A stretch of DNA of 46,488 nt from a virus (taxonomy: Duplodnaviria; Caudoviricetes). Positions 28,076 to 43,068 of the stretch are shown piece after piece. Where the stretch lies: positions 1-46,488 of IMG/VR virus record IMGVR_UViG_3300032373_000024, one strand, 5' to 3'. Each line of letters starts with the position of its first letter. Within the stretch, counting starts at the first letter, position 1. The notes below the pieces were generated by a model that did no database searches, was not told where the DNA came from, and worked only from the letters and a program-made list of their open reading frames with translations. A program made the translations under genes and the position numbers.

Positions 28076-28276
28076 CTATTCTGCCTCAATTATTTCATAG
28101 TTTGTTATTTTTCTAATCTTGCGGATTTTAGCAATTCTAAGTTGAGCCGAGCGAATTGATTTAAATCTCTGTGCTGCAGCCTTAATACTGGTTCTTGATT
28201 CTGTCGAATTAGAAAAGGAAAACGGGGCTATAAACGCACCCTCCCATAAAATTAAGTATTCTTTAAATTCACTCAT
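28076..28276 (-). CDS. Hypothetical protein
   Basis: 66 aa with GAGG RBS. Confidence 0.55.
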   Translation of the reverse strand: MSEFKEYLILWEGAFIAPFSFSNSTESRTSIKAAAQRFKSIRSAQLRIAKIRKIRKITNYEIIEAE

Positions 28277-28309
28277 TCTAACCTCTATTTGTTGTTTTAC
28301 TGTTATTTA
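28274..28309. repeat. 36-bp intergenic direct repeat, copy 1
   Basis: 33/36 identical to 28667-28702. Confidence 0.9.
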
Positions 28310-28669
28310 GTATGATTTTCCGTTTTTTTCACTTCTTTCAGATCGCTTGTGATCATTTCTGTTTTTGTTGTAATCCATTTTTTCTTTGATAGCTCCACCA
28401 AGATCATATCCAAGCATTCCAGCTAGATCGGCTATTCGTATCATCGCGTCTGCAAGCTCCACTTCCAGCATTTTTCTATGTGGCAAATGTTCATCCATTA
28501 GGTTTTTTCTATGCCCCTCCATTGCTTCGCTTATTTCGCTGTGAATTAAACAAAGTTTAGTAGGAACTACATTGATATCGTTTATATCTACACCTTCCCA
28601 CCATCCAGCCTTTAAAGCGTCTGTGTGAGCATAGTGTACAAAATTATTTAAATGCAATCTAATCATCAT
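28307..28669 (-). CDS. MazG-like all-alpha NTP pyrophosphohydrolase
   Basis: KLCLIHSEISEAME..RK...EVELADAMIRI.DL and KM.YN..R motifs. Confidence 0.85.
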   Translation of the reverse strand: MMIRLHLNNFVHYAHTDALKAGWWEGVDINDINVVPTKLCLIHSEISEAMEGHRKNLMDEHLPHRKMLEVELADAMIRIADLAGMLGYDLGGAIKEKMDYNKNRNDHKRSERSEKNGKSY

Positions 28670-28702
28670 TCTGACCTCTATTTGTTGTTTTGCTGTGATT
28701 TA
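28667..28702. repeat. 36-bp intergenic direct repeat, copy 2
   Basis: 33/36 identical to 28274-28309. Confidence 0.9.
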
Positions 28703-36529: not shown

Positions 36530-36727
36530 ATGAAAAAGATTAATATTTTAAAACTAGCGCTAAATAAAGCTAATATAAGTCAGATAGATGCGGCTAAGCA
36601 TTTCGGTGTTAATCCGAATACGGTCAACCAGCAATGCAATTCTAATGACTTGAAATTATCAACAATTTTAAAGTATGCTGAATTGTGCAAAATGCAGGTT
36701 TCTGAGTTAATAGCTCTTAGTGAGTGA
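36530..36727 (+). CDS. Cro/CI-type (XRE) HTH regulator; the only credible plus-strand gene
   Basis: ISQ.DAAK.FGV.PNTV.Q helix-turn-helix; AAGGA RBS. Confidence 0.85.
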   Translation: MKKINILKLALNKANISQIDAAKHFGVNPNTVNQQCNSNDLKLSTILKYAELCKMQVSELIALSE

Positions 36728-41681: not shown

Positions 41682-41933
41682 TTAAGTTAAGTTGCTTGCT
41701 GCGTACTCCATAGCCTCATCGATATCACAAAAAACATTTTCATCAATAGTAAATATATTATCCGTGTATGATTTAATTATTGAATTGCAGTCTATTTCTT
41801 CCATTGCAAAACCATAAAACGTTTGCAGTAGATTGGCTTTTCGATTATAAATATCTCTTTGCATTATGCTTAGCTGAAGTTCGAGAGACTCTATACCACC
41901 GATCCTTTTTGATGCTTCATTTTGATCAATCAC
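41682..41933 (-). CDS. Hypothetical protein; first ORF after the ncRNA region
   Basis: 83 aa, AAGGAG RBS. Confidence 0.6.
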   Translation of the reverse strand: MIDQNEASKRIGGIESLELQLSIMQRDIYNRKANLLQTFYGFAMEEIDCNSIIKSYTDNIFTIDENVFCDIDEAMEYAASNLT

Positions 41934-42147
41934 TATATTCTCCTTATTTAAGTTAATACGGTCACTTGACCTTTAGTTGATATACAACAAAGTTTATCTA
42001 TATTCTTATCACTCGCAGTATGCAGAACAGTTTTTAGAGTTGTCGCTCCGATATCCAACTTATGATAGTTGGCACATCAACGTCACCTGCTTTATCCACG
42101 GTCTAAATGTTGTAATGATAAGTAGAACTATCTAATCTAATTTTGGT

Positions 42148-42287
42148 AAGTGTTTATATGAAGGGGAGCTAACGGAGGTTTTAAACCCTGATAAGTGCCA
42201 CTCTAACGATGCACCCCTCTCTCCTTGCAATGAGCTTATCCGCATCTTTCGCGAGCAAGATATTAACTCCACCACATATAAACACTT
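42148..42287 (-). ncRNA. Structured ncRNA candidate, twin unit A (140 nt)
   Basis: Perfect 13-bp closing stem, UGGU/CCUU internal loop, GGAGUUAAU/GUUAGCUCC stem, multibranch interior. Confidence 0.65.
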
Positions 42288-42364
42288 TACTGCATTTAAA
42301 GCCTGCATGGCATTCGGATTCAATTTTTGCGGAATGGGGTTCAATTCTGGTATAAGAACCATTG

Positions 42365-42504
42365 AGTTTATATATGAAGGGGAGCTAACACCCCTTGCCA
42401 CGAGGATTTTACGTTTAACTCACTGTCTACACAAAGATTTCTCTTTTTAGGAGTAGCGCCCATTTAAATAGGCTATCTAATCAACTCCACCACATATATA
42501 AACT
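42365..42504 (-). ncRNA. Structured ncRNA candidate, twin unit B (140 nt)
   Basis: Perfect 12-bp closing stem, same internal loop and inner stem as unit A, different interior. Confidence 0.65.
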
Positions 42505-42514
42505 TTAAGTTAGT

Positions 42515-42686
42515 TGGTGCGCTTGGAAGGAGTCGAACCTTCAAAGGAGAAACTTTCGCCGTAGATAGGTAATTAACCTATCCCGCTACTTCGTTTCAGC
42601 TATTAACACTACTAAGTACTTTTCGTGCTTTTGCTAATTTCCCTAGCCAATTTGTGACCTGCGTGTACCTATTCCGCCACAAGCGC
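42515..42686 (-). ncRNA. tRNA-Leu-like RNA (172 nt) with degenerate anticodon arm and very large variable domain
   Basis: Acceptor GCGCTTG/CAAGCGC plus A-CCA; Leu-type D arm GCG-GAATAGGTACA-CGC; T arm GAAGG-TTCGACT-CCTTC. Confidence 0.8.
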
Positions 42687-42699
42687 TTTTAACTAACTT

Positions 42700-42864
42700 T
42701 GTGAAAGCCGTAAATTTCAGGCATAAAAAAAGGTCGAACTGTTCTGACCTCTTGACAATCAAGGGCGGAATAAGACATAAGTGGAAGGGATTAACCCACG
42801 AATATCAAAAAACCAGAACACTTCAACCTTAACTATCTCATTCCTAAAAAACACGACTTCCACA
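42700..42864 (-). promoter_or_regulatory. Long leader hairpin / attenuator candidate
   Basis: Outer TGTGGAAGTCGT/ACGGCTTTCACA stem; inner 17-nt arms followed by a U-tract. Confidence 0.55.
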
Positions 42865-42874
42865 CCGCAAAACT

Positions 42875-42903
42875 ATTATCTTACTTTTTTCCTTAATGGT
42901 CAA
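42875..42903 (-). promoter_or_regulatory. Sigma70-like promoter of the ncRNA region
   Basis: TTGACC-17 bp-GATAAT. Confidence 0.7.
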
Positions 42904-42906
42904 ACT

Positions 42907-43068
42907 TTATTTAATAACAATTCTAAAATCAGTCTCACTAGGCGCTTTCCCCAAGTTTTTCCTAGCCTCAGATCTACAAGTTGGACAAGTTGATTGGTCG
43001 CCAGCATGAAACATATATACCACGTATGGTTTGCCGCATATACCGCATTTTATTGTTCGTTCACTCAC
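42907..43068 (-). CDS. Small zinc-finger protein (53 aa)
   Basis: Manual translation MSERTIKCGICGKPY...CPTCR...; GAGGAGG RBS. Confidence 0.6.
   Translation of the reverse strand: MSERTIKCGICGKPYVVYMFHAGDQSTCPTCRSEARKNLGKAPSETDFRIVIK

Follow-up and report, generated by a model that had tools for sequence, protein, structure and literature searches.

An IMG/VR virus record (IMGVR_UViG_3300032373_000024, 46,488 nucleotides, hereafter the window) is complete at 46.5 kb, has direct terminal repeats and carries twin structured units whose paired arms very probably form a handle for RNase III, with cutting predicted from half-site geometry and from a pair-frequency matrix. We found 32 distinct complete elements of this kind on phage-like contigs, mostly one per contig. 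Taking all lines of evidence together, we lean towards the reading that these elements would be small RNAs released by RNase III from an early stable-RNA operon, and that they probably act as decoys.

The window encodes a P22-like coat protein (best relative in a Paraglaciecola phage, 56%), a terminase, a tape measure protein, RecT and SSB, and no integrase was seen among its ORFs scanned. Nearly all genes lie on the minus strand, and a small helix-turn-helix gene at 36530-36727 (+) is the sole clear gene on the plus strand. A 37-nt direct repeat (92%) at 28273-28309 and 28666-28702 stands on either side of a 120-codon gene, an arrangement that suggests a cassette-like insertion. Both units lie inside a gap of ~950 nt without convincing genes, and upstream of them are a promoter, a leader hairpin and a tRNA-Leu-like RNA (Table 1). 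The promoter is the likely start of a non-coding RNA operon, as judged from a consensus match (4 such sites in all, with 3.0 expected from shuffles). The leader that follows is also conserved in a relative (locus L295; relatives are named by locus below), in which a homologue of the hairpin lies upstream of the element (z 27.7); the hairpin is possibly an attenuator or antitermination site. An analogous leader stem occurs in most relatives, and several of those stems contain an RNase III-like half-site. The tRNA-Leu-like RNA has a multi-hairpin insert of ~100 nt and an odd anticodon arm, and lies within an AU-rich stem of 9 bp (42691-42699 with 42507-42515) that has AG at its start. It was missed by default ARAGORN on the window; a relaxed run, which returned mostly noise, served only for its coordinates. 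Homologues are present in L162 (z 12) and L338 (z 8.9), each within an AG-N4-UAUA stem, with both ends kept and inserts that differ. The spacer between the units is conserved as a module, with a homologue in L308 (z 23.7), and the module after unit B has no Rfam match.

Table 1 Features of the non-coding region, in window coordinates
Feature	Position	Strand	Basis or remark
Sigma70-like promoter	42875..42903	-	10/12 consensus bases, 17-nt spacer
Long leader hairpin, U-run at end	42725..42830	-	Attenuator- or terminator-like, read from sequence
tRNA-Leu-like RNA	42515..42686	-	Fold: 7-bp acceptor, class II D arm, T arm, ACCA end
Unit A	42365..42504	-	Handle and 93-nt interior between motifs
Unit A outer stem, 12 bp	42493-42504/42365-42376	-	Fully paired
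Unit A internal loop	UGGU 42489-42492/CCUU 42377-42380	-
Unit A inner stem, 9 bp	42480-42488/42381-42389	-
Predicted RNase III product of unit A, 118 nt	42375..42492	-	Cuts between 42493 and 42492 and between 42375 and 42374; half-site geometry and matrix
Spacer between units, 77 nt	42288..42364	-	Unstructured, fold z +0.4
Unit B	42148..42287	-	Handle and 91-nt interior between motifs
Unit B outer stem, 13 bp	42275-42287/42148-42160	-	Fully paired
Unit B internal loop	UGGU 42271-42274/CCUU 42161-42164	-
Unit B inner stem, 9 bp	42262-42270/42165-42173	-
Predicted RNase III product of unit B, 116 nt	42159..42274	-	Cuts between 42275 and 42274 and between 42159 and 42158; half-site geometry and matrix
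16-nt 5' motif	42483-42498 (unit A), 42265-42280 (unit B)	-
19-nt 3' motif	42371-42389 (unit A), 42155-42173 (unit B)	-
Conserved non-coding module after unit B	41990..42132	-	Near-identical 132-nt alignment to L159, z 48

An initial annotation of this DNA had described two units sharing an identical 16-nt and an identical 19-nt motif. Both units are present where it placed them, on the minus strand, and their outer stems differ in sequence yet pair fully around UGGU/CCUU over 12 bp in A and 13 bp in B, as it had also reported. Exact matches of each half-motif occur in the window at just those two places. A chance repeat of one 19-mer is expected ~0.015 times in a genome of this size, and here there are two repeats that pair with each other. 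The folding z score of the whole unit is -3.9 for A and -4.5 for B, none of 200 shuffles reached that stability, and the plus strand folds more weakly, with the G-U pairs lost. The two interiors are unrelated (local p 0.71, global p 0.34) and hence are not decayed duplicates, in line with the annotation. Hairpins do form in both, as it claimed, but their stability does not exceed that of dinucleotide shuffles (z +0.04 and +0.71). An 89-codon frame (42132-42401) overlaps the units antisense, and the interiors of relatives are unrelated; small peptides behind the GGAG of the 5' arm never have, on inspection, a consistent start or frame.

The annotation had proposed a database search for the motif pair. 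Its gapped pattern returned 1 viral locus, and wider patterns brought the set to 32 distinct elements, which accrued as 23 + 6 + 3 over successive scans. With the 5' 16-mer alone we obtained 28 viral matches, 12 of them complete elements, and 121 loci in the genome collection (51 of 64 parts scanned), 1 of which is an element. This sole genome-collection element sits on a 3.6-kb contig of a Thalassotalea metagenome-assembled genome (MAG), the one genome matched among 201 candidate host-family genomes. The 16-mer with three extra bases gave 27 matches in metagenomes (13 complete, by script), and a 3'-anchored scan gave 23 matches and 12 elements, with the 5' motif identical in 10 and carrying one change in 2. 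Scans free of the inner stem added six new elements with inner stems of other sequence; UGGU and (C)CUU persist in elements whose inner stem changed. The constant scaffold of the annotation describes most of the family but not these six relatives. In one scan, 28 of 32 matches were dropped for want of a stem. Identical duplicates (L303, which equals the window's two units, L288, L296, L297 and L302) were merged before counting, and we left out L299 and L306, which are truncated by contig ends, and L384, which matches by chance within a gene. A search of 12 six-kb loci turned up no second complete copy, so the twin arrangement of the window is unusual. Copies of the handle or of payloads were not seen in cultured phages and plasmids.

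All elements are oriented as the neighbouring genes and tRNAs. The flanking genes are those of unlike phages, with DNA polymerase or O-like replication genes, and the only recurring neighbour families are HNH endonucleases and a sigma-like gene, each beside a minority of elements. A sigma-factor-like gene is close to the element in L135, L142 and L144 (PHROGs match), with a similar frame in L287, and two long structured-looking non-coding stretches without an Rfam match lie near the element of L001 (2330-2580 (+) and 1680-1900 (+)). Rfam gave no match at gathering score in the window, only chance-level or unrelated matches in 41900-43000, and only tRNA-clan matches in 20 relative loci. The family is absent from Rfam 15, and it is nowhere described in the full texts searched, a set that excluded most subscription literature and most old work on phage tRNA processing.

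Pairing of the arms is maintained by compensatory change. Across 23 aligned elements 92.5% of cells are paired, against 38-51% in controls with slid partners, and there are 50 double changes against 19 in shuffles, although element counts are not independent because members share ancestry. Relative to the predicted 5' cut, AG stands at -12/-11 in 31 of 32 elements and G at -11 in 32 of 32, with the 5' 16-mer having formed part of the search pattern for 24 of the 32. The AG was also present in 19 of the 20 elements found without AG in the pattern. At the predicted 3'-arm cut, -12/-11 is AG in 27 elements, GG in 2 and an AG shifted by a 1-nt bulge in 3, and the six relatives whose inner stem lay outside the pattern keep the 3' AG in 5 cases and the G in 6. 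The four bases after AG are variable on both arms, with compensation. From AG to AG the span is 22 positions (alignment columns 5-26), with the two cuts staggered by 2 nt, and the outer stem of 12-13 bp and inner stem of 9 bp plus a 4-nt loop compare with ~11 bp per RNase III half-site. The E. coli rules place the distal box ~11 bp away from two cuts with a 2-nt stagger. The T7 early sites carry AG at the same offset in 3 of 5 cases and GG in the other 2.

According to PMC3867540, RNase III sites measure 22 positions from distal box to distal box, and the distal box is without conserved sequence among substrates. The E. coli 16S trailer is cut at +33 (PMC8708148) and has AG at the same offset. 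We mapped box positions from the text and tables of the papers. The inner UA/UG pairs match the optimal distal box of PMC1540722, which also describes C-G at proximal-box position 2 as a binding antideterminant and cites a bulge-helix-bulge motif to which RNase III binds without cleavage. At proximal-box position 2 the E. coli rules ask for A-U or U-A, and the outer half-site has A-U there in 23 of 23 elements; the inner half-site falls in the loop, with C-G possible at that position.

For scoring we used the in vivo E. coli RNase III pair-frequency matrix of PMC6212723 (Table S4), with row orientation taken from its G counts and cut-offs of -25.5 and -33.8 from its Table S5, the former read as the stricter random-sequence control. 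Unit A scores -23.8 and unit B -23.0, each the best of 15 registers. Across the family 31 of 32 elements score at or above -25.5 and all 32 above -33.8. The predicted register is the best of 15 in 25 of 32 elements, in scoring that took the better of two loop alignments and with an outer-half register test whose outcome stem length partly dictates. Compared with random perfect AU-rich stems, the outer half-sites of A and B rank above 99.6%; the inner half-site is weak (-13 to -15.5 versus about -9 for the outer). RNase III is encoded in 5 of 5 candidate host genomes. Together with a handle that is fixed across the family around diverse interiors, this geometry and score support the earlier proposal of a processing handle presenting interchangeable payloads.

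The same half-site, AG-N4-(U/C)WUA, encloses tRNA-Arg/tRNA-Ser pairs and tRNA-like RNAs in the neighbourhood of elements (L145, L149, L148, L162, L308 and L338). Of 206 long-range stems around elements it opens 62 (roughly half of these 62 being the elements themselves), compared with 22 of 120 on the opposite strand. Upstream of the element in L143, L144, L145, L148, L236, L338 and L385 there is another recurrent type of handle, which has this half-site geometry and encloses T-arm-bearing or unknown RNAs; one RNA in it has a weak tRNA-Sec score (27.5 bits). The outer stem around the Leu-like RNA differs between L162 and L338, which argues that arms and payloads are swapped. Likewise, since the leader, spacer and downstream module of the window recur separately in L295, L308 and L159, respectively, the region is a mosaic of exchangeable modules.

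The interiors range from 44 to 149 nt, and clear homology is seen in only 1 of 253 pairs (L295 and L307); L295 was left out of payload folding and T-arm counts as the homologue of L307. Hairpins of the tRNA T-arm type are present in 4 of 28 payloads, versus 0.04 expected. The L301 element comes close to a tRNA whose acceptor is the inner stem (26.1 bits, under the 29-bit cut-off), and the 3' arm of both L154 and L301 equals the last 11 bases of host tRNA-Ala. These sequences suggest that the inner stem descends from an acceptor stem. CCA is missing in 29 of 32 elements. The T-arm payloads of L301 (718-788 (+)) and of the L304 element give a 13-bp acceptor-plus-T helix, a feature also of tRNA-Sec, and in L301 the loop resembling that of an anticodon contains a GUG triplet and one more G-C pair may form, as it does in tRNA-His.

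The payload of L137 mimics the L11-binding domain of 23S rRNA (z 7.0; E 1.4e-7 with a model not built from L137). A stand-alone 58-nt copy of this domain (L304, 922-979 (-)) lies among tRNA-like genes beside the L304 element and mimics it in full (E 5e-8), three of its pairs having changed in a compensatory way under the pairing scheme of the domain. The GTPase-associated centre (23S nt 1051-1108) is thus rebuilt in the L137 payload and in the cassette neighbouring the L304 element, and not in units A and B. A 23S profile from 17 sequences gave two matches in 24 kb, and a viral scan with a narrow exact pattern returned 0 further L11-domain mimics. General rRNA mimicry of all payloads was considered and rejected: 21 of 23 payloads have a 23S z below 2, leaving L137 and, weakly, L307 (z 3.5), and the L307 and L295 interiors have a weak likeness to 23S nt 241-281. 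As a group the payloads have a mean folding z of only -0.38 +/- 0.15, and GNRA loops number 8 versus 4.6 (p 0.10). Payloads A and B matched none of the rRNA, tRNA or Rfam families, and the units have no ARAGORN or Rfam tRNA call, no T arm, no cloverleaf and no match to the L11-binding-domain model. The aptamer-like role that the annotation had imagined accordingly finds its evidence in relatives, through T arms and the L11-domain mimic, and not in the window's own two payloads.

From these data we propose the following course of events. An early transcript from the promoter at 42903 would run from the leader and the Leu-like RNA through unit A, the spacer and unit B into the downstream module. 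RNase III of the host would cut after UAUAUG of the 5' arm, at the strong half-site, and, with a stagger and probably more slowly, after CA of the 3' arm, where the inner half-site spans the loop. Cutting should be sure at the strong outer half-site and is probable on both strands, which would yield RNAs of 118 and 116 nt with paired ends, and the closed 9-bp end would protect the product. Phages would exchange the cassettes via the shared arms. The inner stem probably came from a tRNA acceptor with a tRNA-Ala-like 3' end, and CCA was lost in most members, so most products could not be charged. Any tRNAs in such cassettes would be finished by the usual trimming enzymes. The released RNAs would likely be swappable decoys of host translation RNAs, a role that we infer because payloads are diverse and some of those in relatives contain parts of tRNA or rRNA. 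That the payload is a selected decoy is the weakest step, and we rate it at even chances or slightly under. A wider version is possible but clearly more speculative: marine phages might hold a modular decoy library in which the RNase III handle displays exchangeable imitations of translation RNAs. Equally tentatively, the imitations might comprise elbows of tRNAs, uncharged acceptors, the L11 site of the ribosome and further types still to be recognised, payloads A and B included. Such payloads could conceivably bind and deplete ribosomal proteins or the nucleases of host defence, with an arms race driving their diversification, an idea that we hold as loosely.

The main competitor, which we rate as rather unlikely, is that the sites work as in T7, cutting or stabilising the surrounding transcript, with the interior a drifting remnant that is often a decayed tRNA. 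It draws on the half-site shared with T7 early sites, on interiors that are hardly better folded than shuffles and clearly homologous in just the one pair, and on the ribosome-binding site and start codon found within 45 nt downstream of 10 of 32 elements (11 of 32 have a T arm within 400 nt, and 1 has both). However, T7 stems close on short loops and the predicted products here span 66-171 nt, with 17 of 32 at 82-94 nt; T arms and the L11-domain mimic are retained in some payloads, and the window units stand among other non-coding modules, not before a gene. We think it improbable that the cassettes instead titrate RNase III, with a loop that permits binding but slows or blocks cutting and an interior that is only a spacer. 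Such a sponge would account for UGGU and (C)CUU being kept despite the change of inner stem, and the loop can be folded as a bulge, a 2-bp helix and a bulge, a motif bound without cleavage according to PMC1540722. Yet the outer half-site is near-optimal for cutting, tRNAs that need release are enclosed by the same half-site, and the loop is fully paired in 3 of 32 members. Trapping of acceptors is equally improbable. Here the cut 5' end would base-pair with a separate molecule, at the 3' end of a tRNA-Ala or tmRNA of the host, blocking charging or shielding CCA: in candidate hosts the complement of the 5' arm forms the end of tRNA-Ala genes and of 4 of 5 tmRNAs, the 11-nt tRNA-Ala end is the 3' arm in L154 and L301, the 5' arm of L332 is a perfect complement, and the predicted gain on co-folding is highest for tRNA-Ala among 8 tRNA types. 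The co-folding, however, ignores tRNA tertiary structure and modifications and has a small control set, the inner stems of six relatives lose the match, descent from an acceptor stem explains it, and a block of tRNA-Ala would hurt the phage too.

The shared arms of ~25 bp flanking unrelated interiors, and the mosaic of neighbouring modules between phages, might also mark DNA-level cassette ends of MITE-like or attC-like type that insert or exchange captured segments, the RNA fold being a by-product. This is very improbable, with one strand favoured by the G-U pairs, all elements facing the direction of neighbouring genes and tRNAs, mostly a single copy per contig, no integrase or transposase among the ORFs scanned, and attC core motifs missing at the ends. 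Least credible are guide RNAs of a programmable system, the reading that the annotation had offered on the strength of a constant handle, a variable interior and two copies in one genome. No targets were found: the longest interior match in the window genome is 12-13 nt, the same as in shuffles, the 201 candidate host-family genomes gave weak matches only (6 of 7 inspected within open frames of ~300 aa or longer), and the best 20 of 206 phage-record matches gave no interior match. Neither Pfam on 38 window ORFs nor PHROGs on 148 neighbouring ORFs revealed an effector gene, most small ORFs being without a family, and beside elements only the HNH endonucleases and the sigma-like gene recur, in a minority. 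Interior lengths of 44-149 nt also speak against guides, and a host enzyme accounts for the handle.

Released decoys, the reading that we prefer, can be set beside known systems. As in the rRNA leader-trailer helices and T7 R0.3-R1.3, two half-sites extend over 22 positions with an AG distal box, and as in rRNA and T7 RNase III stems there are an AU-rich proximal box and an internal loop adjoining the cut. Like those of rRNA stems, the arms surround a payload; T7 stems, by contrast, close on a short loop and punctuate mRNA, and rRNA stems enclose one fixed RNA, whereas this handle encloses many unrelated interiors of 44-149 nt and is itself probably exchanged between phages. Bacterial Y RNAs have a terminal bulged stem with a tRNA-like domain; neither an Rfam match nor a Ro60 gene among the ORFs scanned was found. 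Integron attC core R-box motifs are absent at the ends on inspection, and no ORF cassette lies between the units. A fixed handle with a variable interior also resembles CRISPR and TIGR arrays, but no targets were found, there is no array and no effector was seen among the ORFs scanned, in agreement with the annotation. By these membership tests the elements are outside the tRNA, Y RNA, CRISPR, TIGR and attC families.

The closest analogues are other RNAs of phage tRNA regions. T4 rnaC and rnaD (species 1 and 2 RNAs) are described in PMC3014915 and PMC12685909 as stable RNAs of ~120-140 nt from the phage tRNA region with roles unknown. Like them, the units are small predicted RNAs in a phage tRNA region, adjoining a tRNA-Leu-like RNA; unlike them, they have a handle and an enclosing outer stem that are not apparent on inspection of the printed T4 sequences, and the T4 pair is fixed whereas the payloads here are hypervariable. 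No T4 record was among the best 20 of 206 phage-record matches. Phage tRNAs counter tRNA-cleaving defences by replacing cleaved tRNAs in translation (PMC10264068). The elements share with these tRNAs that they are phage-made and tRNA-like, would take part in a contest with RNA-cutting defences of the host, and have real tRNAs in the same clusters, but most products are without CCA and units A and B without a cloverleaf, so the products could act only as decoys.

What the small stable RNAs of phage tRNA regions do has been a question since T4 rnaC and rnaD. In the present family the product ends are predicted to the nucleotide, the host enzyme is a known one, and a single handle comes with about 30 natural payload variants. 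Should the payloads prove to be decoys, they would represent an RNA-only route of counter-defence and would point to the host factors that are titrated. If they are not, the family would still be an unusually clear natural design of an RNase III site, and possibly a compact cassette for the release of small RNAs.
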